A stretch of 64,000 nucleotides of DNA from Iphione sp. A-MEVVRFRX5 (taxonomy: Eukaryota): assembly GCA_976226885.1 (NCBI GenBank), contig OZ320313.1, positions 68,696,001-68,760,000 on the forward strand, in the 5' to 3' direction. The translations under genes were made by a program, and so were the position numbers. The notes beneath the pieces are model-generated. The model was not told the origin of the DNA. It was given only the letters and a program-made list of their open reading frames with translations, and searched no databases. Numbering within the stretch: position 1 is the first letter of the stretch; every line of letters starts with the position of its first letter. Positions 44,501 to 64,000 of the stretch are shown piece after piece.

Positions 44501-47500
44501 ATTACGACCACGCTACCCGTTACTTCAACTGCTGGTGATAGGCTCATTCAAGCCTTATATCAGCTGGAGACCAGATCCAGGTGCGTTGTTGGTGGACGCC
44601 TTTACAGTCAATTGGAGAACATTTCAATTTATTTACGTGTTTCCACCTTTCCCATTTATTTCCAGAGTCCTCCAGAAGTGGCGGCATGAAAAGACAATGA
44701 TGGTTCTCAACGTGCCGGCTTTGAAGACACATGCGTGGTATGGTCGGATCTGCCAGTATCAAACAAAGGACATGATCACATTCCCAGCCCAAAATAACAA
44801 TCTAATAAATGTGTTCAACAGCCCAGATTGTCGAGACATAAGCTCCATCTCACTCCTGGCCGTTCTCTTCTAAACATCAAAGTGGAAAGGTCTCTCACCA
44901 AGACAACATTGAGAAAGTACATGTAGAACTCTTGGAGACCATGCACTCCAGAACAAATCTATTCCTACCTGAATCGCTAGCCCACGTTTTGCGTCCTTAG
45001 AAACATTGATCCGTTGAAGCCTTCATTACAAGAAGCCCTTATGTTTCTCCATTCTTTGTTCTAGGCAGGGTTAGGTTACAGTGCAATCAACACTACCCAT
45101 AGCACCTTATCTGTTGTTATAAGATCTTTTGAAGGGGTCCCCTTTGGACAACACAAACTCACCACTAGAGTGTTAGGGAGTATTCACTAGAGTGTTAGGG
45201 AGTTCAATCTTAGACCCCGACAGGCTAGACTCAAATACACATGGGATGTGGAGATGGTACTCAATTTCCTCAAACAGTGGTTCCCTCTCCATTCGCTATC
45301 TCTTGAACAAATTTCTCTCAAGACTTCCACTCTCATTCTTCTTGCGTCCTGTGGTAAGATATAAATGGTGCATAACATTGAAGTATCAAATATCCATGAG
45401 GCGGGACAGGGCAGGGTCCAGATAAACTTTGCGTCACCCTTGAAACACAATCGCCAGGGTAAGCAACCAAATAGGATCATTCTCACCGGGTTCCCTCAAG
45501 AACCTGCCTTTGTGTTGTCACCCATTTGCAGGCTTACAGAGCAAGAACTGAAGATATCTGGGGGGACCAGGACAGACTTTTTATTAGTTATTTACCACCG
45601 TCGATAAGTCGATAACCACAGGGTCCCTTAGCAGATGGATCAAGGAAGTCATGACCAGGGCAGGCCTAGACACTCAGACTTTTAGAGCACACAGCACCAG
45701 ATCTGCTGTGGCATCCAAACTACACGCAGTGGGGATTCCGCTTTCTGACATCCTCAAAGGTGGCATGTGGAGCCATGAGAATATGTTCAAGGAATTTTAT
45801 CTCCAGCACATCATTTTTGTACGGGTCGTTTAATACGGTTACCTTACATGGTTGATTTTTTTCTCTCAGATGGAAGGTTGTCAACCATGTTACAGTATGT
45901 TGCTACTACTGCGTATTGACCGTGCTGTCCTCAAACCTGTTACCCTAAACATCTGTATATGGACTCCACCTTGCGGAGTAATGCTGACTCAAACTTGTTC
46001 AGTTACCTGAAACTTGTTGATGAGGGACTTCAAGTTTGAGGAAGTATTGTAGAGATGTACGGGTAGTGACACCTGCGGTACCGCAGCGAGATTACATGAC
46101 AGTGTACTCTGTGAACCCTGAAGTGACTAGCGGCTACGGCCCCGTAGGCATTTTACAGTGTAATGTACTTAGTGAACCTTGGGGATAGGGACGGCTACGG
46201 TACCGTAGGCGAAATTAGTGTTAAAGGTGACCTTGGACCCTGGATTCCCAGGCACCTGCTACATTGTAATTACTTGCTAGATTCTGATTGGTAAAGAACA
46301 ACTACACTTGTGATGTTGTATCCATTTTATTCCATGACGAGATACACTGTTACTATCACTGTTGGTCACATGACATGCTGGTTTAGTATAAATAAGGGCC
46401 CTGTGAGGCCAATAAAACAGTCTGCACTTGGATCTCTTGAGTGGAACTTGTTACTTTGGGAATGCTAAGCTGAACAAACCCACTTGGACTTACCACTAAG
46501 GGTGGATGCTAAGAGGGAACTACACTGGAATACTAGCAGGATAGTCAAGGCAGTACAGCAGTACACAATAGTTGGATTACTCCAAGTGGGAAAGCAAACA
46601 CGCAAATTACAGTATTACAAAGCAAGGTGGCAGTCCAGGCCCACCACCTTGGGTCTGGACTGGTGGCTTGGTCGGCCAGAGCTTTGGTTACTGAGTTGGT
46701 TATATAAACATTAATAACCCTACCCTGTCTTTCAGAGGAAGACCTGGACTGCCACTTAATGAGGTGCTCTCCAAAATCTTGTTTGTTCAGGTTTGAGTAC
46801 AGCCCGATTACTACCTCAAGGCTGATGTGACCAACTACAGATGGCGCTGCATCTCTACGTGGACTGCCACCTTGCTTCGTAATACTTCCTCAAATTTGAA
46901 GAAAATATCTCATATCATCTAATATGTTAGATTATTTTTTTCAGTTCTGGACTAAGAATGATGACCTCTTTTATACTTTTAGTGTGTCAGAAGTCTGTAA
47001 AATGTGTAAATTATTGGCCCAGGGCCCTTTCAGGCCTCCAAATGGCTCTGGACACAAAGCACACATGCAAGGAAAGGTCCTGTTGGCAGTGTTGTTAGTC
47101 ATGTTATATCGTTTTTTTCCACATGATGTCATCCGTGGTATGGGAAACAAATCTGTATGCATGGAAAGCAGTGAACAGTCATCTCATACCTCATCCAGTA
47201 CTTAAAGCGATTGAAATATGTATACAGTGTTCATTGGGTACCATTTATGCCTGTAAATGGCTACATTCATCACCCCAACCAAATGAAATGAAAACATGTG
47301 AAATGCATCCAAATACACAGGGGAACCCATCTGAAATGGGATTTACCCAGTATTGCAACATCACTGATAATACTGTGAGGCATATCAAATGCACATGTAT
47401 TTCGATATTAGCATATAAATAGAAAACTGGAAGACGCTATTTACTGATGCAGATGGTGCTACAGAAAGATCAACTTTTTTTCTGTTCTGGAAGATTCCAG

Positions 47501-50500
47501 GGTAGGTTCACGTCTATTGTATTTTAGTATTATCAGACAGGTAAGTGTTATGTGTTGTCAAATATTCTCGAGAGTGGACTATACATGTACTCTCCTCAAC
47601 CTTTTTGTTCTCACTTTTGTTTGGAGATTTGCTTCTGCTCCCCTTTGTGCCTGATGTCTGCTGAGTCATTCTGAAACCATGCCACCGCCGCCTGATCCCT
47701 TGCACCCTTGATGAGGCTTTCTTCTAGGCCCCTGTCTCGGAAGTCACATGCCAACTAGCCGAGTTATAGGTTTATTAACATCCCCCCCCGTATTCATGTC
47801 CACTCATAGTGCTGTTAAAGTGAGTGGTGGCATGACCTCCACTATTGGAGCCACTAAAGTTGTAGTTAGTAGTATGTAGTAACTACATATAGGATGTCCG
47901 TACATCAGCCAGAGAGAGTCATCCGATGTAAAACCTGAGTTGTAGTGAGTTTGGGCAGTGAAAAACTATATGAAAGGGGGACAGAGATAGGGAGAGAGAC
48001 AGAGTGACCTCCACATACATGTACTGCAGTATTCTTTTTCACTACAACTTGAAGTGAGACATGGGAGTGGCGATGTAGTACAAGATATGCCTCTGTTTGT
48101 CACAGTTAGCCAGTTGCAAGGACATTTTATTCCCAGAATAGGTCATCCACATGAAGAGAGGAGTTTTCATCCTTTAGAAAATATTACTCGTGAAATTCAA
48201 AAGAATTCACATGAGTGAACATTTTTTTTTTGTGAATTGTGGAAACCTGTAAATGCACATAGTTAATTATTCGCGAGGATAAACTTGTCCCTGCAGCCAG
48301 CTACTCAATTAGCGGCAACATTTAAATTTTGTAATATAACCTTTGTACCAGGAATAGACACAAGCAGTAGGAAGTTTGTAATAGAGGTCCCTCGTTACAA
48401 CCGGCTTTGACCGTAAATCTTCTGGCATGTTGTGTCTGACATAACGATTGTTTGATTGTGATTATTATCATTACTCATAGAGTACCGAAAAGAGAAGAGG
48501 AAAGCAGAAAGGAAAGGAAACCTGAAAGAAGCGTCACAGTTTTGTAATTTTCTTGGTGAACTTCTTGCAAAACAAGGTAAGGCAACCTCAATCTGTTTAT
48601 GGCTTTAGTACCAGAGGTGGACACTACCTGAGATATAGTCCAGGTGACAGAACTGCAAACCCACAGGCTCTTTTCGTACAGTTGTCGCTGCAGTTAGATA
48701 TACCCATGGGAGCTCTGCTTTTTCATTGACTGTCTGAACCAACAGGACACAAAGATGCTTGAGAGGAGGCTAAAGACAGATTATGGAATGGCCAAAGCAT
48801 CAAAACAATCCAGCTGTCATATCAAGATTGAATGCTCTAAGCCCTGCAAATTGGTATCCAGTTGACTTGATGACCTCGACATCAAATGCAAATGGCTTGG
48901 CGCCATCTTGAAGCCCTGCATTGATCTGTTCAATTGGTTCAGGAGCACCAGGGTAATTGAGCTCAGTTGTAATTATTGAGCTGCCTGGCAGTGCTAGAAA
49001 CAATTGGCCTAGCGCAACCAAGGCAATTGGGCTCTGCATCCTTAATCTCCCTTGGCCTGAGCCATTTGATCTTTTTGGTTGCTTCAAAAACGATACACCT
49101 CCACGAGGTCAACTTTTACATTTTCGTGCCTCTCTGCTGACACCAGCAGAGCTTTTCTCTTTTGAGTCGACAACACAGCAGGTTCCGGGGCAATTTGCTC
49201 TGAAATACTCTTCTACTTCATGAATGAAGATGCTTGACTACCAGAAATTGTCTCTGAGGTAGCATACATCTTTTTTCTGATTGACAATCTGGTAGAGTTG
49301 CTGGTGATTTCATCTCTGTTGGCACCTCTCACAATTTTCCAACAAGTCTATGATACTTGAAAAAGAGAAAAAAAGCATACTATATCTGTGCAGAACCTAA
49401 GATCTAATAATTGATAAAGTCTTCATAGAATCCATCTTGAAAACTGAACAAAAATTGATGAAAAATATGAAAAAGCAAAGCATCTAAGCTATGTCTAACC
49501 GCAGCGACAACTGTATTAAAAGTGCCCATGGGTGTTGCAGTGGATGCCACCTGGATTATTTTTCAGACATCTGTGTCCACCTTTGGTACGATGTCAATGC
49601 CACATTTCATTGGTAAGTTGATGTAAACTACTGATTTAAATTCAGTCAATAAGGATAACGTGAAGTGATAGGCCACTAAGCTATCTGGGATGTTGGGAGA
49701 ATATGAAGCTGGTTTGTCAATTTTATGACAAATGCAGTCTGATCCATTAAAAAATAAAGTACACATACTGACAAATGTGAAGCAATGTTAAGTTAAATCA
49801 TTCAGTTATGTCCCTCTATCAGTCTTGAATTGAATCTGTCGAGCTTTGTGTTTCATCAGTTTCATTTGTTTGGGAATGTATTGTCATCGCAAAGTTTGAC
49901 AGAAACTGAACCATGACATATTCCATCTTGCTACTGGAAAAGGTCGATATGAAGAAGCCATTGAAGAACACCAACAAGAGCTGCTCCTTTGTGAGGCACT
50001 GCAAGATATGATCGGCGTCGCTGTTGCAAATAGAAAGATCGGGGAGTGCTACAGTGAAAAGGGTCATTTCACCAAAGCCCTGGAACACCAGAGAAGACAT
50101 CTGCAGATTGCTCAGTCAGAAGGGGATGATGTAGAGACCCAGAGAGCCTTTGCCACCATCGGAAGAACCTATCTTTTTAAAGTAAGGATTTTGGGTTTTC
50201 AAGTTCCTTGTGGGACATTCTTTCCTTAGAAGCAGTGTGTATGACCTGCTTTTCATGTCGGAGGCACCAAGAGTTTGTCAGGATCAGAGGATACCGTGCT
50301 TATGTTTACATTTTGCAGAGCCGTGATTTTCAGTTAAGGGTTTGGCATAGTGCGTCTGTTCACTGTCATTGACAAGTAAAGCTCCTTACGTTGGAGATAA
50401 CCTTCACATCAAAATCTTGCAGTGATCTACAGTGATTTGCTCTCTGTCTATATGCAATGAAATCTGAAGAAAATACCACAGAACTTGCATAAGCAAAGGT

Positions 50501-53500
50501 GCTTGATATTGGTGGCTGGTCAAGGCTTTAACATGGTGACACCATGGAGAGAGCCGACACTGCTCCTGTACACTACCCTCGCACACCATACCATACCCCA
50601 CCCCTATGTCACCAAGCTGCATCACAAAGTAGCCCTGTTACCAATGGAGGTCATATCTGCGGTCAAAGTGTGAGGTCAGCAGATAGAATGACCTCCATTA
50701 TATGCATCCGGTCGAAACTGAAACTGGGGGAGGAGCCTATTCTTTGATCTTAGAGCCGGCATGGAGGCTGGGCCTCCAGTACCACTTCTCCTGAAACCCT
50801 ATGGGAGTACCTATGTTGGAACTCAAATCCTGATTTCTTTCAAGTTGAGTGTAAGGGGGAGGAGGCCAGAGCGGGAGGGAACAAGATAAGATTGAGTGAC
50901 AGCTCCTCAGAGAGCAGGAGGGAACTGGGTGGGGAGTGTCAAGCATGCTACTGGACCACGAGGACAAGGGGGGACTAGAGTGGGAGGGAACCGGGTGGGA
51001 GTATCAAGTACAGGCTGCTGCCGGGGTGTCTGATCTCCCGAGGGGAGGGAGCGAGAGCCAACAGGCTGCTGCTGGGGCGTCCAGTCGCACCATGACTGCG
51101 AGCAGGCAAGGGGGAGGGAGTTGGAGCCAGCAGACTGCTGCCGGGGTGTCCGGTCGCACCCTGGCTACGAACACCTGAAGGCAGGGGGCTACAGCAGGAG
51201 GGAACCCGCCACCGCTGGTCCCCGGCCCGCAAAAGTCGGCATTTTGCGTGAAATTTAGTGAGAGAACCACTGAGAGCTGCTTGGGTGCTTGAGTCAAGCT
51301 AAAAGTCGGCATATTTTGTGAAAAGTAGTGCCCCTTCACTGGGTCAGTGATTGAGAGAATATGACCTCCATATGCAGCGTTCGCTGCAGGTATCTTGTCA
51401 GGCATACGTGACCATTGTTTATAATCATTAATATATCTTCTTTATACATATATTTTTCTCCTTTTAGGCCGAATCCACCAAAGACGTCGCAGCTTCGAAG
51501 GAGGCACTTGAGAGAGCTAGATCTGCTTTCCAGCAAAGTCTGGATTGCTGTGAGAAATTGGAATCAGGAATATCACGCAAAGAATATGCAGAAATGAAGT
51601 CTAGACTGTTGTTAAATATAGGTACGATAAACAAGTTACCCTGCGTGAAAATGCTGACTGACTTTTAGAGAATGCACACACACTGATTTTTCATGAAGTT
51701 CTTTCATGAGGAATGATTTGAAGAAAACACGTAGTCTTCAATGAGTTGGTGTAATTAATATGCAGCCAAACCTCCCGACTTTTACTTTATGGTTGAAAGA
51801 ATTTTGCCTGCTTCTGGTGGCCGGTGTGATCAAAATTTTGAGTAATTTGAAGTTTTGTCTTCTAAGTAGTGAGGTCTGACTGTGTTGTTATGTAAAACAG
51901 TTCTTTTTATTGTTTCTTGATTCATTTATTTCAGGTATTGTCCTTGAACAGAAGGGCAATATAAAAAGGGCCTCTGAATTGCTGAAACAAGCTATACAAA
52001 TATCGCAGTAAGTAATGTATATATTTTACAGATGGCTATATGGTCAATGATGGCAGAAAACTGGAATTTTCTCCATTGTACAGTTACTATTCAGGGGCCA
52101 AGTAATGTATAGTAAAACCAATTTTGTTTTCCATATAGTCTGCCAATGTATTTAGGGAATGTTACCATACATTTCATGTCTGTAAAATGTTTTCATTTTT
52201 TCCTGCAAGGACACATAATCTAAAGGAGGATCTATACCGTTGTCAGCATACCCTGGCTGAGATGTTCAAGAAGCATGGACATCTTGGCCAGGCTATCCGT
52301 CTTTATGACATGGCTCTCAAATACTGCCAGTCAGTGAAGGACAAAGTGGCTGAGGTGGAGATTCTTACACAGAAGAGTTTGGTAAGCGTCGTACACGTAC
52401 ATGTAATTGGACATAGTGTACGTGGCACTTCTGTTTTCTTCTTGAAGTTGCATTACATGTATTTGTACAGAAGTAGAGTATATGTGGTGTACATGTACAT
52501 TTGAAACTTATTAACCAGATTACGTCCGTCACATAGATTTTTGTACAGATACCGGATAATCTGTTTACTCAAACAGGAAAACATAAAGTAAAATACATCC
52601 ATCCCTCAAGTTGAGTTATGGTTAATGCAGTTTTCCGGTTGTCAAGTCTCCAGATGGCAAGGTTCAACTGTAGTTGTTATGTAGCTATCACCTCTGTAGA
52701 GTCTGCCTTTATACCCAGATAAGGTGTTAGAGCTGGTCAATTCTTTTGAGGTCCAGCATTTTGGCCATATTAGACATAACTGATACATACCAGAGTGCAT
52801 TTAAAGATTACTGTCTTGCTTTCAACTTAAAAGTCATCAGGTTTGCGGTTTCAGTTCTACACACCCTACCTTTGAAGTTTGATCTGAATATCTTATTCCA
52901 GATTTATGTTCAGCTTGGTGACTTGTTTGCTGCTCAGCGTGCCATAAGGAAAGTCTACAAGAGCAGTGCCTCAAGTGAAGATACCAGAGAACGAGCGTCT
53001 ATGATTTTCAAGACTGGTAAATAGTGAATAATTGAGAATTGATCAGTTTTGTTTAATCACAAGCACCTTTGGCGCCTGCACTGGTTGGAAAGAGTGGGCA
53101 TGTAGGTTTGTGGGGGTAGTCACAGACTGGTGGGGGGGGAGAGGGGTCAAAGTACAGACTCATCTGGCCTTTTACAACCCTCGGTTCTGCTTGACTGGAC
53201 AGAGGTGGGGTACTGTTTACAAATCTGCGTAGGGATACTAAGCAGGGTTCCTACTGCACAGGGAAAACAGGGAAAATGGCCCAAAAAATTCCCTGTCCGG
53301 GAAAACACAGGGAATTTGGAAATTTGGGGCAAACACAGGGAAAAAAATTTTGAAAATCCATTTTAAAAAATCAAAAAATTGTTCATCATTAGTTGAAAAA
53401 TCATCCATATGTAATAAATTAGTAAGAAATACTGCATAGCAGTCATGAACATTAACTGCTTGTATTTTCAATGGAGGTCATATTTGCACTGGAAGTGGAG

Positions 53501-56500
53501 ATCAGCAGATAGGATGACCTCCATTAGTGGAGCCAGGAAAACCTGAAAAAGGGGGAAGGAGCCTATTCTTTGAAGTTAGAGCCAGTTTGGAGGCTGGGCC
53601 TCCAAGTACGACTAAGAAAAAGTGATGTCATGTTGCACAATCCCCCCTTTCCCCCTATAGCGGGAGGGAACTGTGGGACTCAGTGTTATATCATGTTGCA
53701 CAAGCCCCCCTCCTGCAGGGGAGATGGCCAGAGCAGGAGGGAACTGGGTGGGAGTGTCAATCACCCTGCCCTGACCACGAGCGCCCGAGGGGGAGATGGC
53801 CAGAGCGGGAGGGAACATGAGTAAGAGTATGAGTGAGAACATGAGTGAGAACATGACAATCAGTGAGAACATGAGTGAGAGTATGAATGAAACCATAAGT
53901 ATCAGTGAGAACATGAAGAGAGCACAGGTGTTAATGAGAACATGAATATGAGTGAGAACATAACAGAGTATGTGTGTGTGAGTATGAGTGTGTGAGAACA
54001 TCACTAAAAATAAGATTGAGAACATGAGTATCAGTAAGAACATGAAGAGAGCAGGAATATGAATGAGAACACGGATGTGAGTAAGAACATATTGGAGAAT
54101 ATGAACATAGAGTGACCCAGTCAAAAGGTGGGTAAAGAGAAAAAACTGTGATAACTTAGAGACTATTGTAAATAGAAGGATGGGACTTCAATGAAAATGG
54201 TCCATGGAAATGGATACAGGTGGTAGAGGGTTGTCAGGATGACCTGGTGTATGCACATGAAAAGAGAAAAACTATGATATCTTGACAACTATGAATTCAC
54301 ATGTACCATTTCAACATTATAGAGGAAGAATATGACCTCCATTTGCAGCCCTGGCTGCACCTGTTACTTGTCCTTTGACATATTATATGCTAGAGAACAA
54401 CAAACTTGGATTATAATTTGATAACTCAAAGTCCTGTTATGTACAATTATACAGAAACCAACACAGGGAAAACTGCCATGGCACAGGGAAAACTCAGGGA
54501 AAACACAGGGAATTTCAAAAATGAAATTTGAGTGGGAACCCTAAGGAAATAGTCCAATGTCATGTTGTGTTTCAACTTACCGCTGTCATAATCAAGATAA
54601 TTTAAACAGCACATTTTCTTCTACAATATTTTCACTGACCACATGAGTAAATATAAAAAATAAGTTCCCTGTCTGAAATCTCATTTGGGTGAGAGCTTTC
54701 CCCCACAACCAGACTTCTTTCGGGCAACGTGTTATATACGTAGTGTAATAACACAACAATGGAACTCTTGCAGCATAAAATTGTATTTTGCTGTATATGC
54801 TCTCCACTGTCCCGCTGTTTTCTCACCTTTAGAGGTCTGCCTGACGTTGGGACCTCTTTCTCCTTCATTAGCGCAGACTTCCATCATTAGCACTTGTCCC
54901 TTTATTGTTCCCCACCTCATAGAGAAGGGGGGGAGGACATTAGGAATGCTGCTGTCCCAACCTTCTGTCACACTCTTGTAGGTCTTATAACTCTCAAACC
55001 GTCCACTCAAAAGAACTGATTTTAATATATATTTCTATACATGGTTCTATGACACCGGGTAAATTTGATAGTAATTTAAGTATTTTAAGGATGAAATTAT
55101 GCCAATTTTACTCTTTTGCTAACATACCTACTCGATTTAGAGATTCCTTTGTATAATAACTAGTCTTTAAATGAGGTACCGGTATGATGATCCTGGCCAC
55201 AAATCCTCTTTTGATGTATGTAACAGTCAGGTTAAATAAACTGATTTAATAATAATAATAGGTCTGACAATGCACACACATGCACACACACATTCATCAA
55301 TACCTCCCTTCTACCAGTATCAGCTTGTAGCAGATGGTGCTCAGTCAGGCAGAACTGATGGTGGTCTGTCCAGTGAGGCAGAACTGAGGTTTGTGTGCTC
55401 AGTGAGGCAGAACTGAGGGTTGTAAACCTGAAGGACTTAAACAAGCCCATCCAATCACCCCAACAGAAGGTGCCAATCAAAGTGGTTGTAAAGAGACAGA
55501 GACACCACACACACACACAAACACACACACATACACACTCTGTCTCTCTCTCTTTTTCTCTTTCTCTCTCCCCTCCACCCACCTGGGCAGTTGGTGGCTG
55601 GGGACAATAGACCTCACTGGTCAACACTCTTGTTTTCTTTGAAGTTTGGCCAATTTTAAATAGCAATTTCTGGGGGAGGGAGACGGAACTGATGGGGCAA
55701 TGGGGGTGGTGGATGATGGGTTTCATGCAATTCAACGAAGAGAGGAGTTCTGTTGTCCATGAACTGGACCACAGGTGGGTGGTATTCTGCAGTAAGAGAG
55801 GGTTCCGTTTTCAGACTGGATATCAGAGGTGGGTGGGTGTCAGGAGTTATAGAAACGTGGCTGGGACCGTTGCAACAGCTCTTTACCACATACATGTATA
55901 CAGACATACTCCTGTAAAATTGAATTAATGCATATTTTTAATGCTGGGCTTGGTGCAACTCTGTCCTGTCCTCCGGTCTAAATGCATATAATGCTGGGCT
56001 TGGTGCAACTTTATCCCTCTGTCCCCCAGTCTATCTCCTTCGCCTTTCATTGTCGTTCTCCTGCCCTCCCTCTCTCCCTTGCACTCTTCCTTTTCTTCCC
56101 GTCTTCCTCTTTCTCATCCATCTCCTCCTGTGAAATGAAACACATAAGAAATTGTACAGACAAATGCATCGGTCAGTAACAAAATGTATTTGGTAAAGCA
56201 TACACATTTGTGCATTTGTTACAGTTATCATTAACTATTGTGCACAGTTATTTGTATCAGTAGCACACCAATCGATCAATTTAGTTTGTATGGTTCCCTG
56301 GAATATCAATCAAAACCCAGAGTCCCAAGTCTTGGTGATACGTTTGGCTTACGTCTGATTCTTGTTACAATCATTCAATGTTTCAGGGAGTCAGTTCCCT
56401 TCTTTAGGAGTAGGTCAGTTATTTAGTATTACTTAAGCATATCAATTATGATGAGCAAATTGACTTATGCAACTGGATCAAATTGGGGTCAAAGTTCAAG

Positions 56501-56725
56501 GCTCAATTACTAGGTCAAGTAAGGCAAAGGCGGAGGTATGTTTCTTAAGAGAGAAAAAAATTATTATTTTTTGTTCCAGTAATTGTCATGGATCGTTTAA
56601 TGGAGACATTAAAGAAGACACCTGAAGATGATTATGAAAGTCGAATGGTAATCTATGAAAAAATGGGTGACAGAGCTGCCCAGGTAGAAAGTTTCAAACA
56701 AGCTATTGCCTCATATCAAAATATG
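38577..56725 (+). CDS. TONSL: Tonsoku-like protein (TONSL/NFKBIL2), N-terminal TPR region; partial, continues past the window
   Basis: Exons: 38577-38592, 48481-48576, 49943-50181, 51468-51621, 51935-52007, 52210-52381, 52902-53016, 56580-56725 (1011 nt, phases compatible, GT-AG). The translation MDEIDKYRKEKRKAERKGNLKEASQFCNFLGELLAKQGRYEEAIEEHQQEL..GVAVANRKIGECY..QRAFATIGRTYL..EMKSRLLLNIG..LGDLFAAQRAIRK..IYEKMGD matches TONSL TPRs. The 16-nt first exon is inferred from its GTAAGT donor, phase and promoter context. Confidence 0.9.
38919..39103. mobile_element. hAT-like MITE (185 bp)
   Basis: TIR CAGGGCTGGG...CCCAGCCCTG with internal TGTCGC repeats. Confidence 0.7.
39950..40352. mobile_element. 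MITE with GTCCAAAC-repeat TIRs, 7-bp TSD and an internal (TTAGGG)3 core
   Basis: AGGTAGT-CGGGTCTGAGTCCAAACG ... CGTTTGGACTGGAACCCG-AGGTAGT. Confidence 0.85.
40829..41604. mobile_element. Tc1/mariner-superfamily non-autonomous element with internal tandem repeats
   Basis: TA-CAGTGCAGTCTCTATT ... AATAGAGACTCCACTG-TA. Confidence 0.75.
44402..44523. mobile_element. Small fold-back (hairpin) insertion within the DIRS element
   Basis: gtgacgggtagcgcggacgtaattttt.. versus reverse-complemented right end gtaacgggtagcgtggtcgtaattttt.. Confidence 0.75.
46048..46611 (+). mobile_element. Solo LTR (564 bp) related to the LTR at 56892-57896
   Basis: TGTAG...ATTACA ends, perfect 4-bp TSD GTAT (46044-47 and 46612-15), TATAAATA and AATAAA. 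Shares ccaagtgca(g/a)actgttttattggcc(t/a)cacagggccc and other blocks with the 57-kb LTR in opposite orientation. Confidence 0.88.
50646..51369. mobile_element. Non-autonomous DNA transposon, ISL2EU-like (GG..CC ends, AT TSD), copy 1
   Basis: AT-GGAGGTCATAT ... ATATGACCTCC-AT. Confidence 0.7.
53243..54543. mobile_element. hAT-like non-autonomous element (CAGGGTTCC TIR, CAGGGAAAA sub-repeats) hosting a nested insertion
   Basis: CAGGGTTCC at 53243 and GGGAACCCT at 54534-54542. No clear TSD. Confidence 0.6.
53473..54340. mobile_element. ISL2EU-like element, copy 2, with a (GAGTGAGAACAT)n tract
   Basis: AT-GGAGGTCATAT...ATATGACCTCC-AT. The first ~130 bp are homologous to the element at 50646. 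Confidence 0.7.
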
Positions 56726-56891
56726 GTAAGTTCCTGTATTTATTGAAGTTGACTTATTGTACATTGTTATCGTAATACATGACCTGCACTCAGGTCTTAA
56801 AATACCTATGCTGTTAGGTGGTGTGTGTCACACAGAAAGGAAGTTTTTTTTAGTAAAAATTGGAAAAATTTAGTGGGGTGTCTTTTGATAT

Positions 56892-57896
56892 TGTAATTTA
56901 ATGGCTGACTTCCTCACTTGGTGTAATCCAACTAAGTCCAACTCGCTTAGTTACTCCACTATAATTCCAGTGATATCTTATCCAAGTCCTAACTCCAGGA
57001 TAATTCTCTGTTAAATCTCCCACTTGGTAGATCCAGCTATGTCTAGTGCTATCCTGTCTCAGTTACTTCACTGTAGTCCCAGTGCGGTTACATCCAAGTG
57101 CCAACCCTAGGTAATCCAAGTGGGTTTGTTACATCCCCAAATCAACAAGGTCCACTAGTGAGGTCCAAGTGCAAACTGTTTTATTGGCCACACAGGGCCC
57201 ATATTTATAGTCAAACTCCTGGCCATGTGATCAATACAATGTATCAGTCATGGAATAAAAAGGCTACAACATCCCAAAGATTTTTTTTGTCTACCAATCA
57301 TATTGCAGGTGCCTTGTCATCCAGGGTCCAAGGTGACCTTAAACATCCTATATGCCTGGGGTACCACAGGCCATTTAGCATAAATGACTGTGGTGCCATA
57401 GGCGGCCCTAAGCTTACTCTCCAGTACACATGCACTAAAGTCTTAGAGTTCACCAAGTACAACACAAGTGGCTGTGGTGCCACAGGCAACGTTACTATTA
57501 CAATCTATACGACTGTGGCGCCGCAGGCAACGTCACTACTAAGTCTTAGAGTTCATCAAGTACAACATAAGTGACTGTGGTGTCACAGGCAACGTTACTA
57601 CTACCACCTACACAACTGTGGTGCCACAGGCAACATTACTACTAAGTCTTAGAGTTCATCAAGTGCAACACAAGTGGCTGTGGAACCACAGGCAGTATTA
57701 CTATTACGTCTTAGAGTTCGCTAAGTACAACACGAGTGGCTGTGATGCCACAGGCGACATTACTACTAAATCCTAGAGTTCATCAAGTGCAACACAAGTG
57801 GCCGTGGAACCACAGGCAGTATTACTATTACGTCTTAGAGTTCGCTAAGTACAACACGAGTGGTTGTGGTGCCACAGGTAACATTATCACATTACA
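56892..57896 (-). repeat. 3' LTR (~1005 bp) with a tandemly expanded U3
   Basis: TG...CA ends, minus-strand TATAAATA and AATAAA near 57180-57208, tandem units actaagtcttagagttc(a/g)..aagt(a/g)caacac(a/g)agtgg at 57435-57890. Confidence 0.85.
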
Positions 57897-57959
57897 CTCT
57901 CCCCACCTTAAAAATAGCCTGCCGGGGGAAGTGAAAACCTGTTTCCCTGAGAAGTACAT

Positions 57960-58620
57960 CCTGAGCCAATATAAACCTCCATAGAGGGTAACAGTTGATC
58001 TACTAACTCCTTGGATAAATACTAGTAAATTTAGCAAAGCCTCCATAGGAGGTAATGGTCACCTAAGCAGCAAACTTTTCCTGAGTATACAAGTTAATCA
58101 TTTAATCTGGCAAAGCCTCCCTAGGAGGTAGTGATATCACAATAACCCAAAAGATCACAGATTAACATCCCAGTAACTGTAAGAGCCTTACTCTTTTTGT
58201 GGGGGTACAGTCCCCCTTTCATTTTACTGTTAACGTCCTCACTCTAACAACCCTTGAGTAGATGTGGGTAGATCTGACAAAGCCTCCGTAGGAGGTAGTA
58301 ATTGTCTAGGTAACACAAGATATCACAATAAATAAAAGATCACAGCTTAGCATTCCAGTAACCGTAACATCCCTGCTCTTTTTGTGGGGGTACAGTCCCC
58401 CTTTCATTTAACTGTTAACGTCCTCTACCTGTCCTCCGAGTACACAGGTTAAAGCTATCTAATCTGGCAAAGCCTCCATAGGAGGTAGTGATTAACAAAC
58501 AACATCAGTAACAAGGGTAAACTAGCGCAAAAAGACTCGTCCTATCACATGGCATACATCTCAACGATTTTTTTCTGGGGGTACAGTCCCCCTTTCAGTT
58601 ATACCTATCCAACATCTTTC
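57960..58620. repeat. Imperfect tandem repeats between the accessory ORF and the PPT
   Basis: Recurrent caaagcctcc(a/c/g)taggaggt and tttgtgggggtacagtccccctttc blocks. Confidence 0.8.
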
Positions 58621-58684
58621 ACAATCCACCCTGGCAGTTCCTTGTCATTACTCTGGGTGGATTCCCAGCTCCCCCCCCGTTTTC

Positions 58685-60262
58685 CTAAGCCGCGCGGGAA
58701 TCATGGGTCATTGTGGTGTCAGGGGTCGGGCATGGGGCAGAGTTAACGTCAGTCGTCGGCACTCGGATCTGAACGGGAGGTGCCCCCATACATATGTCGT
58801 ATATTGTTGGCTGTGTACTCTGCCGATGGGCGCGGACCTCCTGAACCTCACGTTGCCACCCGGGATCGTAGATTCGCGTTTTACTGGGCCCCCATCGCAT
58901 GGACTCTAGCACTCTTTCGGCGGCGTCGACGGTCTGGTTATGCGTCGAAAGTGTGGAGTCCAGTCGCCCCCAGTCTTGGGAGATAGGTAAAGACACCCCC
59001 GGCAGCAGCAGAGTAGGTCGTTGGCACAGGGGCTCCAGAAGAGTGCCGGGTAGGGCCTCCTCATCCTCCGCTAGGCACAACACCCAGGCAAGGGCTGCCC
59101 CTGCCATCAGTCGCTGCGCCCCAGTCATGTCATGCCACCGACGTGGGGGCCAGGTAATGGCCGGCGGCAGACGAACAGCCGCTGGGACCACACTGGCCCT
59201 CATGGCCGGCTGGTGAGGTCGAATGAGACCATCCAAGACGTCCCGCATCCTCCGGGACACGGGTTTCACGAACTCCGGAGGCAGATACCGTTGCACTAAT
59301 TGCATCAGGTGCCCTCCCGGCAGGGTTGGCGACGTGGGGGCGTCTCCTCCCTCCCCAGGCAGGAGAAGAGGATCGGCTGTCGCGACTGCCCCCTCCGGCT
59401 CTGTGGCTGCGCGCAGCTGTGCCAACACGGCATCAAAGTCCTCCACCTCGGGTAGGCCGGCCCGCTCCTCTCCAGATGTGTCGCCCCCTACCGGTAGGTC
59501 TGCGGGAGGTGTATACGGTACCACTGGGAGGTCCAGCTCGGGAAGGGCTGGGTTTGCCTCATCCGGTGCGCCCACCTCTGGTTCACGCTCAGGCTCGATT
59601 ACTTGGTCTGCCTGCGCCTCGGGCCCCAATGGCTCAGGGCCTTCCCCGTTCAACCCTTGTGGCTCCAGAGGGGCCGGAGGAGCTGGAGCAGGGTCGGGGA
59701 CTGGGGGATTTTGTACCTCTGGTGCGGCGTGGCCATCCCCCTCAAGACCTCCTTCTGCTCCCTCCCGTGGGGGAGAGCCCAGTCGTACATATCGGGGGAG
59801 TGGGGGTGGAGCTGCTCGTCGGGGGCACGTGGCTAAGTAGCTCATGATCTCCTCCTCCCCCAGGTACCCTCCTTCTAGTCGTCTCAGTCGGGCCTTACAT
59901 AACGCCGCTGTAAGTTCGTCATCTGGCACAGCGATAGTCTGTCCCCCCAGTGGGGCTACATCATACAAGGGCCGGTACAATTTCTCGGTCAAACCTAGCG
60001 CTACTACCCAGGGGTGGTAGTTCCTCTGGTGGGTCACCCAGTAGTGCTCATCTGTGATGTAACTGGGGCACCAGAGGCACATCATGTCCCTCCCTCGTTT
60101 CCCATGATGCTTCTCATCTAGGTGACGCTCAAAAGAGGGGCCCTTGAAGAAGGGACGCTTGCGGGGTAGACATAGCTCGCACAGCTTTACCCCTGGGGGA
60201 AGGGGTCCCTCAGATTTCCAAGTAAGCGGGAGGCGGGGCGTTGTAATTTTCTCCCGCGGCAT
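58685..60262 (-). CDS. Retrotransposon accessory ORF: two C2H2-type zinc fingers, Pro/Glu-rich linker and C-terminal helical domain (525 aa)
   Basis: ATG at 60262 in ACCATG context, no internal stops. CELC-x15-HLDEKH and CLWC-x12-HQRNYH at 60014-60181. Confidence 0.75.
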   Translation of the reverse strand: MPREKITTPRLPLTWKSEGPLPPGVKLCELCLPRKRPFFKGPSFERHLDEKHHGKRGRDMMCLWCPSYITDEHYWVTHQRNYHPWVVALGLTEKLYRPLYDVAPLGGQTIAVPDDELTAALCKARLRRLEGGYLGEEEIMSYLATCPRRAAPPPLPRYVRLGSPPREGAEGGLEGDGHAAPEVQNPPVPDPAPAPPAPLEPQGLNGEGPEPLGPEAQADQVIEPEREPEVGAPDEANPALPELDLPVVPYTPPADLPVGGDTSGEERAGLPEVEDFDAVLAQLRAATEPEGAVATADPLLLPGEGGDAPTSPTLPGGHLMQLVQRYLPPEFVKPVSRRMRDVLDGLIRPHQPAMRASVVPAAVRLPPAITWPPRRWHDMTGAQRLMAGAALAWVLCLAEDEEALPGTLLEPLCQRPTLLLPGVSLPISQDWGRLDSTLSTHNQTVDAAERVLESMRWGPSKTRIYDPGWQREVQEVRAHRQSTQPTIYDICMGAPPVQIRVPTTDVNSAPCPTPDTTMTHDSRAA

Positions 60263-61127
60263 GGTAGGCCGTCTCGGTAACCGGTCAGTCTTGGCTCGGT
60301 CAGTCGTGGCTCGGTCGGTCAGTGGCCGTCCGCAGTCAACTGTGGGGTCACAGTGACCAGGGAACACTCACCAGTCCGGGGCGGTGTGGCTGTGGGGGCA
60401 CAGTCGATAATCGCCAGACTCGTTTGGTCGGTGGTAGAGCTAGTGTCCCCCGCGGAGGTCAACTCCTATCTCTAGTCCAGTCGCTTAGTCCTCGGTGATA
60501 CCCCCTGCGGGCCCGCAGTCCAAAACAAAGTGTAGATGTCCCTGCGGGGTCACAGGCGTAATTACCAACCTGACTGTGGGGGCGCAGTCGAAGTCAGCGG
60601 CCGGCGTCCTCGTCGAAAATTTCAAGCGGTAGACCTCCCTGTGGCACCACAACCGCGATAATTCCTCTCTCCCATGCTGTCTGACGACCTTTCTCGCCTT
60701 TCTATCTCCCTCTCTTCAACTGTGCTTTCAGCCGGTGTTGGGGTTCTTGGCTTTTCCTCTCTTCACTGAATTACGGTAGAAGGGGTTCCCCAGAAACGAA
60801 AGCGAGGCTGGCGGATGTTTGGGTTGTCCGCTTCCGGGATTCCCCCCTTCTTGACTGTGGGCCCCCAGTCACCGAGTCGTTTATCGACTGTGGTACCACA
60901 GCCTCTGAATTCCTGCTTTTCTCCCATTTAACCCCCCTTTTAGAGGTTCATTCGGCCTCTCTCCCTACGAATTACGCTGAATCTGGGTAGAGATGTCCCC
61001 TCGGCCTGCGTCCTCGCAGTTCCGCTGTCGTAAGTTCCGTGTCACTGCGGTTCCACAGTCGTATCGTCAATGTGATTACGCAGTTTCCCACTCGACTGCG
61101 GTTCCCCAGTCGATTCCATCTGTTCGC

Positions 61128-61164
61128 TATATAAGAGCGTGCGATCGGCGGCTACCCGTCAGTC
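61128..61164 (+). promoter_or_regulatory. Pol II core promoter of the antisense accessory gene (TATA + Inr)
   Basis: TATATAAG at 61128-61135 and TCAGTC initiator at 61159-61164 (A at +33 from the TATA start), 33 nt upstream of ATG 61194. Confidence 0.6.
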
Positions 61165-61193: not shown

Positions 61194-61458
61194 ATGGAAC
61201 TACCAGCGTACCTTGCAGGCCTCTCCCAGGGAGGGGCCTTTCTACCAGAAGACCAGGAGAGGTGCCCTCCTGTGGGAGAGGATTACTTCCCTGAAGAGCA
61301 GAAAGGTTATCCCCCCATGGAGGATAGGTAGGCACTTACATGCAGCTAGGGGCCTTCTCCAGTTACCAATTGCCATGTTGGATTTCCTGAAGCTGGTTAC
61401 TGATGTTCCTTTGGAGGTTCCAGGTGAGTTCCAGGTTTTTACAGTTACTTGTGTTGTA

Positions 61459-61504
<46 letters not shown>

Positions 61505-62226
61505 CTTCTCCTGTTCCTCTTTTCAGATCTCAGCCCCCGGATCCGTACTATCGGTTTATTGATGTGGGCACCCCTGGGCCTACGATAAGGGTGTATGGGT
61601 TGCATCCCATGTCCACCCATCCGCTGTACATCCCGGCTCCGGGCAACATTCGGTTGTATGGCCCGGATCATTGGGTGGGCATCTCTGTGCACCCGGTGAT
61701 CCAGCCAGTTCTGCCCCACAGCGACGATCCTCTGTGGTCCCGCCAGGACTCGGTATCTCCCGACCTCGGTTTGGGAGAAGTATCCAGCTACCTCGCCTCC
61801 CTCGACAACATCGAATCCAGCCACACCGATGAGGACGACTGGTCTCATTGTTCGATGACCTCCAGTCAGCTGGACCCCTGGCCCTCCTCGAACTCTGACG
61901 TCAGCGCCTCGCCCTCATATAGCTGTTCTAGTGGTGTGGCCTCGTTCACCGAGGTTGATTCTACGAGCACTTCCTCCTCCGCCACCTGTCCTCGGTCGCC
62001 CTCCCCGGAGGACACGAGCTCGCCGGTGGACACGCCATCCCGCTCGCCTGCCCCATCCAGTTCTCCTGATGTGGGGCCAGTCCTCGGGCGGGCTCCCCTC
62101 TCCTCCTGGCCGGCCGATTTCCTGTCGTCGTGGTACCCCGACCTGCAGCCCGGGGACCTGGCATGGCATCCCATCCTAATCTCCGACGAGGACGAGGATG
62201 AGGATGCCCCTCCCTCCTCTTCTTAA
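61194..62226 (+). CDS. Spliced antisense accessory gene of the retrotransposon (exons 61194-61327 and 61527-62226; 277 aa, acidic Ser/Pro-rich)
   Basis: AG|GTAGGC donor and a T38 + polypyrimidine + TTTCAG acceptor join two ORFs in frame (..MEDR|SQPPDPYY..). ATTAAA at 62350-62355 followed by a U-rich tract. Confidence 0.65.
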
Positions 62227-63122: not shown

Positions 63123-64000
63123 CTATACGGAGACCCCGCCACCGCCGTCTGGGGCGGAGAGCTCCGCCTTCTTCCGCCAGGAGATGATCCACCGGGGTAA
63201 TCGTTCCCCGCGATACAACCGTAATCGATTCCGATGTACTACTCTTGGCCTCGCTTGTTTAGAGCGTTGCACAATCAGTCGTTCATCATCCAGAGCTCGG
63301 ATAACTAGCCACGGCCCTGACCAGGGGAAGTGAATCTTCGGGCTTCTCCCTTTTGGTGGCTGTGCCTCATGGAGCCATACCACCGCCCCCACCTTCAAAG
63401 CTTCCCCCTTCATTCTCCGATCATAAGCTCGGGCCTGGGATCGAGCCGCCGTCCTCAGGTTCTTCCGGACTCTACCGTATGCTTCTTGAAGTCGTCGCAA
63501 CATTTCCCCTACCGGGTCAGGTAAGTCTTCCACCTCTGGGTTTTTCGAAGGAAGCCCGTCCATCGCATGCACCGGAAGAGTAACCTCACGTCCGAACATC
63601 AGGTAGTTCGGAGTGTACCCGGTGCTAGCTTGTGGTGAAGCCCTATACGCCATCATGAGAAAAGGGAGTGCGGTGTCCCACTCATCTTGGCTCTCGTGGC
63701 AATGTGCTTTGATCATCTTCCCCAAGGTCCGGAAGCTACGTTCAATGAACCCGTCGCTTTGCGGGTGTCGCGGGGTGGTCCTGGTCTTCTTGATGTGGAG
63801 ATAGTCACAGAGGGCCGTGATGATCTCGCTGCAGAAATTTGTTCCCTGGTCACTGTGCAGCTCGTGGAAACAACCATAGCGAGCGATTACCTCCTCGGCT
63901 AGGACCCGGGCGATCTTTGGGGCTTTCTGGTCTGGTAGGGGGAACGCCTCAAGCCACTTTGTGAAGTGATCCCCCACCATCAGGCTGTAGCGGTTTCCTC
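63123..64000 (-). CDS. Gypsy pol: integrase catalytic core and C-terminus (open to the window edge)
   Basis: GDHFTKWLEAFPL, HSDQGTNF, TTPRHPQSDGFIERSF, WDTALPFLMMAYRASPQASTGYTPNYLMFGRE, WSGPW, VVHRNRL. No stops. Confidence 0.95.
   Translation of the reverse strand, partial: GNRYSLMVGDHFTKWLEAFPLPDQKAPKIARVLAEEVIARYGCFHELHSDQGTNFCSEIITALCDYLHIKKTRTTPRHPQSDGFIERSFRTLGKMIKAHCHESQDEWDTALPFLMMAYRASPQASTGYTPNYLMFGREVTLPVHAMDGLPSKNPEVEDLPDPVGEMLRRLQEAYGRVRKNLRTAARSQARAYDRRMKGEALKVGAVVWLHEAQPPKGRSPKIHFPWSGPWLVIRALDDERLIVQRSKQARPRVVHRNRLRLYRGERLPRWIISWRKKAELSAPDGGGGVSV

Follow-up and report, generated by a model that had tools for sequence, protein, structure and literature searches.

What is a tandem zinc-finger (ZF) protein doing next to the 3' LTR of a retrotransposon? 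This question is raised by an open reading frame on the minus strand, at 58685..60262, of a 64,000-nt stretch of DNA from Iphione sp. A-MEVVRFRX5 (GCA_976226885.1, contig OZ320313.1, positions 68,696,001–68,760,000; the whole stretch is called the window below). The frame starts with ATG, encodes 525 aa plus a stop codon and has the same sense as gag-pol. An initial annotation had described it as an intact tandem C2H2 ORF lying downstream of an integrase amid decayed neighbours, and the translation bore out the intact frame.

We first consider the carrier. The ZF frame lies in a full-length element of 11,689 bp (11.7 kb) that extends beyond the window. Its LTRs are 1005 bp long, 99.9% identical and bounded by TG...CA. 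The 3' LTR is located at 56892..57896 on the minus strand, with its TATA box at 57209-57201 (minus strand), and next to it stand a polypurine tract (57897..57909, minus strand) and a 4-bp target-site duplication, ATAT (56888..56891), whose second copy lies beside the 5' LTR outside the window. The primer-binding site is TGGTGGCAGCGGTGGGAT, which we take to be of the tRNA-Leu type. The gag frame is open over 297 codons, with Pfam zf-CCHC and a weak Retrotrans_gag match. The pol frame is open over 1266 codons in the order PR-RT-RH-IN, with Pfam domains for Asp protease at 97-180, RVT_1 at 406-566, RNase H at 629-757, and Integrase_H2C2 and rve at 885-1054; its 3' end, comprising the integrase core and C-terminal domain, occupies 63123..64000 (minus strand) and the frame runs on past the window. 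By its LTRs, target-site duplication, primer-binding site, polypurine tract and gag-pol order, the carrier is a Ty3/Gypsy LTR retrotransposon (Metaviridae). It is young and intact, and the open gag and pol frames and the near-identical LTRs contradict the decay that had been ascribed to the surroundings of the ZF frame. The order of parts is gag-pol, an antisense (AS) gene, the ZF gene and the LTR. Outside this genome, the best integrase relative is 46% identical, and the named matches, at 36–40%, include proteins of sea cucumber, mussel and pearl oyster.

The insertion itself offered several further observations. Target duplications of 16 elements were all 4 bp long and nearly all RTAN or TATC (ATAT, GTAT, ATAC, GTAC, GTAA, GTAG), which indicates a target preference of the element family. 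The window copy sits within a host-gene intron: TPR exons (Pfam TPR_12) lie upstream of it and an ankyrin-like exon lies downstream (49900-56727, and L031-L032 past the 5' LTR); to judge by this layout, the host gene may be TONSL. Just past the 5' LTR, at about 5800-9200 of L031, broken frames resembling a reverse transcriptase and a tyrosine recombinase were recognised by eye and are probably a DIRS-type remnant. An inverted old relic of the element's LTR, 75–81% identical, was found at 46199-46620, about 10 kb from the 3' LTR. The 3' UTR holds three imperfect repeats of about 185 bp at 58100-58600, each bearing GGGGGTACAGTCCCCCTTTC, and the 3' UTR repeats of other lineages differ.

The ZF protein can be divided into three parts. 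The N-terminal domain (aa 1-163; 59774..60262, minus strand) consists of a basic MPR start, ZF1, a basic 9-aa linker, ZF2 and a conserved helical extension, and is the predicted DNA-binding unit. The ligand spacings of the window copy, C28-x2-C31-x15-H47-x4-H52 for ZF1 and C62-x2-C65-x12-H78-x4-H83 for ZF2, agree with those first reported, and most relatives have x14 in ZF1. The eight zinc ligands are invariant in 21/21 aligned copies and are kept with the H-x4-H spacing in 56 of the 57 copies with a located finger pair, and the alignment of copies shows aromatic or aliphatic residues at finger core positions. An AlphaFold2 model built from the 21-sequence alignment gave residues 1-163 a mean pLDDT of 82.4, with short strand(s) and a helix at each finger. 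C2H2 proteins made up most of the top rows when the model was searched with Foldseek, but fold matching stayed below significance (best Foldseek E 0.34, none at E ≤ 0.001; best VIA-align Z 3.5), and the weak matches included an RNA-binding finger. Pfam gave no match for the window copy and only weak C2H2 matches, in 3/21 relatives, with a best E of 0.0015.

The middle part is a low-complexity variable linker (aa 164-311; 59330..59773, minus strand). As had been noticed at the outset, it is acidic and Pro-rich in the window copy, with 32 D/E against 4 K/R and 30 Pro; this composition is confined to the lineage of the window element, several other lineages being Ser/Thr/Pro-rich and not acidic, and by a rough cut the length ranges from 57 to 270 aa, so that the conserved activation domain suggested by the composition did not hold up. 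Linkers of the DEQS lineage (L061, L063, L065) contain VIDLT, which we take to be a SUMO-interacting consensus. The last part, the C-terminal 'WPP' domain (aa 312-499; 58766..59329, minus strand), is conserved and was predicted, with low confidence (pLDDT 58), to be mostly helical; it matched no known family. An env or membrane protein of the errantivirus ORF3 type was rejected, in line with the initial annotation: the N-terminus is basic, neither a signal peptide nor a membrane segment was seen, and the best 19-residue hydropathy mean is 1.28 in the window copy and 0.91–1.28 in 5/5 alleles examined, under the value of about 1.6 that marks a membrane helix.

Having placed the frame in an intact element, we examined its relatives in the same genome (1.18 Gb, 89 contigs). 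A search with aa 1-121 yielded 1,927 candidates, and all 150 that were scored (150/150) match the ZF ORF, giving at least 150 matches; the ORF is therefore no chance frame. For 61 loci, comprising the window locus, 40 from earlier match lists and 20 obtained with a distant C-domain query, and selected non-randomly so as to cover the identity classes, pol was present upstream of the ZF gene in 60, several of them partial; at the exception, L091, the best pol match lies elsewhere. A host gene captured in the window copy alone was accordingly rejected, and no host homologue was found. The position downstream of the integrase stands as annotated, but the antisense gene in between had been missed. 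Among 21 copies, with pairs restricted to dS 0.1–1.5, median dN/dS was 0.05 for the N-domain (8 pairs), 0.11 for the C-domain (10 pairs), 0.63 for the linker (27 pairs) and 0.04 for RT (23 pairs). These results indicate that the finger domain and the C-terminal domain, the latter already singled out as a distinct block, are under purifying selection and that the linker is much less constrained. A distant lineage (L125 and L136; pol 54% identical) keeps pol, the finger pair and the WPP domain, with a longer ZF2 spacing and with a different, TCCGAA-like word repeated in the LTR region; L125 also has an antisense ORF after a poly-T tract.

The antisense gene lies between pol and the ZF ORF on the opposite strand, head to head with the ZF gene. 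In the window, all on the plus strand, its TATA box (TATATAA) is at 61128..61134, predicted exon 1 at 61194..61327 (ATG at 61194, 134 nt, donor AG/GTAGG cut after AG, phase 2) and predicted exon 2, which follows a poly-T tract and an AG acceptor, at 61527..62226. A two-exon spliced gene is suggested by the recurrence of the TATA box, donor and poly-T acceptor in most of 20 representatives, with acceptor phase 2 in the lineages checked by eye. Exon 2 encodes a conserved domain of about 60 aa (median dN/dS 0.06, 35 pairs), an acidic Ser/Pro-rich tail and a C-terminal end that we take to fit the SUMO-interacting-motif (SIM) consensus. This SIM-like motif ends the protein in 24/38 full frames versus 0/241 control windows.

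We then asked what the ZF protein might read. In each lineage, a 14-bp palindrome with a 5-bp half-site and a 4-bp spacer is repeated in the LTR U3 and in the spacer between the AS and ZF genes, and the half-site is lineage-specific. In the window element, the AS-ZF spacer (60263..61127), the predicted internal promoter region, holds 10 exact CTGNG-N4-CNCAG palindromes (60340, 60390, 60505, 60542, 60574, 60855, 60888, 61006, 61045 and 61096), and U3, with its 62/103-bp tandem repeats, holds 7 (57356-57753). Thus 17 exact palindromes fall in the 7.1 kb of the element that the window contains, against 2 in the remaining 56.9 kb. Palindrome counts exceeded the maximum of 200 dinucleotide shuffles in 18/20 representative spacers and in 13/18 U3 regions, the U3 counts being inflated by the tandem repeats. 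Within gag-pol, class A sites numbered 0 in 15/16 copies and 1 in the remaining copy. A loose 5+4+5 scan had a high background in pol, 3–14 per 2 kb, and for this reason only the dominant half-site was used; the top half-site is common to U3 and spacer in 40 of the 42 scorable copies, 15 of 57 being unscorable. The sites are also placed regularly. The palindrome nearest to the AS TATA box, 18 bp before it in the window element, lies 17–25 bp before it in 13 of the 14 representatives in which a TATA box was found (17 examined). RNA hairpins were rejected as an explanation, with no stem compensation: 23/49 half-site pairs are Watson-Crick versus 20.1 expected, and this independent variation of the half-sites fits a DNA site for two proteins rather than an RNA stem. 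One DVHS lineage (L097, L098, L100, L102, L106, L129, L134) departs from the 5+4+5 geometry: its spacer contains TCGGGCC 11–14 times, as counted in 5 copies, and the arrangement in which the protein binds may have changed.

The half-sites were compared with ZF2 helix residues -1 to +3. DEHY goes with CTG(T/C)G, DEYY with CTACG, DEQS/DDQT/EDQT with (T/C)CGTG, DVHA with TTGGG and DVHS with TCGGG/TTGGG. Members of a class have the same or almost the same helix, even where identity over the rest of the domain is down to 47–85%. When 159 columns of 20 alleles were ranked by class specificity, ZF2 +2, +3, +1 and +6 came 1st, 8th, 9th and 13th (P = 0.002, post hoc and ignoring relatedness), and the non-helix columns K51, W64, K94 and R10 rank as high. 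The residue at +3 tracks the first two half-site bases: Tyr with CT in 286/310, Ala with TT in 156/199 and Gln+2 plus Ser/Thr+3 with TC in 158/175, counts in which copies are not independent, and the DVHS and EMYS lineages are mixed TT/TC. The C2H2 recognition code pairs Ala with T and Ser/Thr with C, and the tracking is in line with it. Ala/TTGGG and Gln-Ser/TCGTG are each present on both sides of the deepest integrase split.

Before the last 20 loci were analysed, a prediction was fixed: a known helix should come with its known motif, and a new helix with a new palindrome in U3 and spacer. A readable finger pair was present in 16/20. For DEHY the motif was again CTGTG, and the TCGGGCC repeat recurred with DVHS. 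The new helices failed the first pattern, which required GG-NN-CC, and each had a 5+4+5 palindrome in both regions: TTGGG for DEYA and DMYA, TCGTG for DVQS/DTQS and T(T/C)G(T/C)G for EMYS. So the new helices also come with palindromes common to both regions, partly with half-sites already seen. In these held-out lineages a palindrome lies 20–21 bp before the AS TATA box. A test on phylogenetically independent pairs had just 2 with support and none that pointed the other way (p = 0.5), and motif and helix could therefore partly share ancestry.

Exchange between elements bears on the same relationship. Elements whose gag, RT and IN differ by dS 0.05–0.15 carry ZF genes at dS > 1.6 or saturated. 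Pairwise identity is mostly 44–70% inside a cassette of about 3 kb and mostly 92–99% outside it, U3 repeat arrays aside. The cassette, at approximately 58200..61100 (minus strand) in the window, contains the spacer, the ZF ORF and part of the 3' UTR; its borders lie just upstream of the AS TATA box and shortly before the polypurine tract, and the LTRs are alike apart from repeat number. Fast adaptive evolution behind the 58% ZF identity between near-identical elements was rejected, because synonymous sites are saturated and the drop in identity is sharply bordered. These comparisons showed that deeply diverged ZF alleles swap as a cassette of about 3 kb between near-identical backbones, and in none of them was U3 seen to be exchanged along with the ZF allele. 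The integrase tree covers 36/41 rows, the other five having matches too short for inclusion. It resolves into seven tight clades, and five of these contain 3-4 or 2 deeply diverged ZF alleles. When the ZF tree was set against it, no ZF allele was seen on a backbone of a motif class other than its own.

We estimate a probability of about one half that the ZF ORF encodes the element's own sequence-specific transcription activator, which would act by binding the palindromes in U3 and spacer. Purifying selection, the position behind pol and a matching lineage-specific palindrome likewise favour the retrotransposon-borne, transcription-factor-like protein first proposed. Binding to the element's own palindromes is in itself probable when activating, anti-silencing and repressing roles are combined, because anti-silencing or repression at these sites would leave an identical pattern in the sequence; the sequence evidence does not separate activation from repression. 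As an activator, the protein would be expressed from a promoter within the spacer, its gene showing no conserved splice acceptor upstream. Two molecules would occupy one palindrome; the outer bases, which vary, would be read by finger 2 and the inner G by finger 1, in which Ser+3 is invariant and Arg+6 near-invariant. Bound protein may then act as a feed-forward switch that raises transcription from the LTR, which yields genomic RNA, from the AS TATA promoter and perhaps also from the promoter of the ZF gene itself. Oligomerisation or contact with a cofactor might be the task of the C-terminal domain. Each ZF allele would depend on a backbone that offers matching sites, and this dependence would account for the absence of observed swaps across motif classes.

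Other roles were weighed against this activator. The protein might instead act in the manner of VANC, removing or blocking heterochromatin or DNA methylation over its own element from the palindromes, with no direct recruitment of polymerase. We consider this unlikely: the SIM-like end of the AS protein would suit it, and the U3 62/103-bp repeats carry the palindrome and so present a family-specific motif amplified in non-coding tandem repeats, but the fixed 17–25 bp to the TATA box would be expected of a factor acting close to a promoter, the element's sites are palindromic and not arrays in a single orientation like the VANC motifs, and Pfam found no chromatin-enzyme domain in the ZF protein.

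It is quite unlikely that host factors read the palindromes while the ZF protein acts otherwise, for example in binding and exporting genomic RNA like CERV of Cer1, the covariation of helix and motif then coming from linkage. For at least six half-sites, a single host would have to supply different factors that all share the 5+4+5 geometry; the ZF2 helix is constant within a class while the rest of the domain diverges; and the palindromes lack the stem compensation of an RNA structure. Such a reading can nevertheless draw on TGTGGT within the class A palindrome, which we take to be a RUNX-type core, on the large coincidence of motif classes with clades and the non-significant independent-pairs test, on the Asp at -1 and extra helical extension of ZF2, unusual for a classic DNA-reading finger, and on the RNA-binding finger among the weak fold matches.

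A repressor that limits its own lineage from the palindromes, as copy control or self-immunity and like a phage repressor on its operators, would leave the same sequence evidence as an activator, and the sites found 5–50 bp from the ZF start codon in many lineages are placed where binding could block transcription. Repression is nonetheless improbable, since the carrier lineages have many copies and are young, identical LTR pairs being frequent among them, and since the sites multiplied in U3 lie at least 146 bp upstream of the LTR TATA box, an enhancer-like position. That the AS protein reads the palindromes instead is very improbable: it is conserved, detected in 58/61 loci and has a promoter bearing a proximal site, but its conserved domain is near neutral in charge and matched no known family or DNA-binding motif, and its divergence does not follow palindrome class (86% identical across different motifs, 57% within one).

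The ZF activator proposed here was compared with known systems, and the gene would work most like foamy-virus Tas and VANC, with no homology detected to either. Tas (Bel-1) is made from an internal promoter and acts via response elements there and in the LTR (PMC12789967). As with Tas, the regulator gene follows the structural genes on their 3' side and has another accessory gene next to it, with sites common to the LTR and a putative internal promoter region. Unlike Tas, for which activation has been shown and whose carriers are env-bearing Retroviridae, the candidate activator belongs to an env-less Ty3/Gypsy element and has tandem C2H2 fingers of no matched family, a head-to-head antisense partner and lineage-specific palindromes; Pfam and protein database searches gave no Tas-type match. 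VANC proteins are anti-silencing proteins of Arabidopsis VANDAL DNA transposons with motifs of 8–9 bp in one orientation (PMC5735166). The present case differs in being a retroelement with C2H2 fingers and palindromes rather than a plant DNA transposon, and the main text of PMC5735166 does not contain the word 'zinc'. Plant Gypsy ORFs between pol and the 3' LTR (Grande gene23, Retand TRP28 ORFs) are described as having unknown roles, and the passages on them describe no cognate site (PMC7264820, PMC11963269). Those passages give them no tandem C2H2 pair, and neither the ZF nor the AS protein matches TRP28 in Pfam. CERV of C. elegans Cer1, also an accessory protein of an animal LTR retrotransposon, is nuclear, needed for element expression, made from a spliced mRNA and linked to genomic-RNA export (PMC10309623); its abstract mentions no DNA operator, whereas palindromic candidate sites are present here. 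ORF3s of bdelloid LTR retrotransposons (PMC5408684) are likewise additional invertebrate ORFs behind pol, modular and differing by family; they are env-like, GDSL esterase, DEDDy exonuclease, coiled-coil or transmembrane proteins as against C2H2 here, and 'zinc' is absent from the main text. A 2026 preprint on transposase-derived regulators makes no mention of retrotransposons (10.64898/2026.08.24.746577).

Homologues of the candidate activator were sought more widely. A set of 5.8 billion proteins contained none of aa 1-170, and an alignment search with the whole protein likewise gave none. The C-domain had two weak 239-aa matches among 1.84 billion representatives (E 1.5e-5 and 8.6e-5), one of them at 96% probability by hhalign. 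ESM Atlas gave no usable match for the C-domain or the AS domain, the PDB sequence search returned chance-level matches only, and no related loci were found in metagenome or viral contigs. No description of the layout was found in the literature by titles and abstract openings, with Repbase and most subscription journals outside the coverage and a prior annotation possible.

The usual view is that LTR retrotransposons rely on transcription factors of the host; foamy viruses and plant DNA transposons are known to encode DNA-binding activators of their own. Transposon-encoded sequence-specific regulators are thus already known, and are apparently undescribed for animal Ty3/Gypsy elements. We tentatively suggest that an animal Ty3/Gypsy clade may have evolved a circuit like that of complex retroviruses, in which a two-finger factor and a palindromic operator co-diversified within a single genome into numerous lock-and-key pairs of mutual specificity, ancient alleles are traded as cassettes only between operator-matched backbones, and the factor drives an antisense SUMO-binding counter-silencing protein. 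As the clade names both a candidate protein and a candidate site, the role of ORFs between pol and the 3' LTR becomes directly testable. Its natural finger-site pairs, at least six, form a series for studying how recognition changes, and they may explain how many related lineages can share one genome without activating each other.
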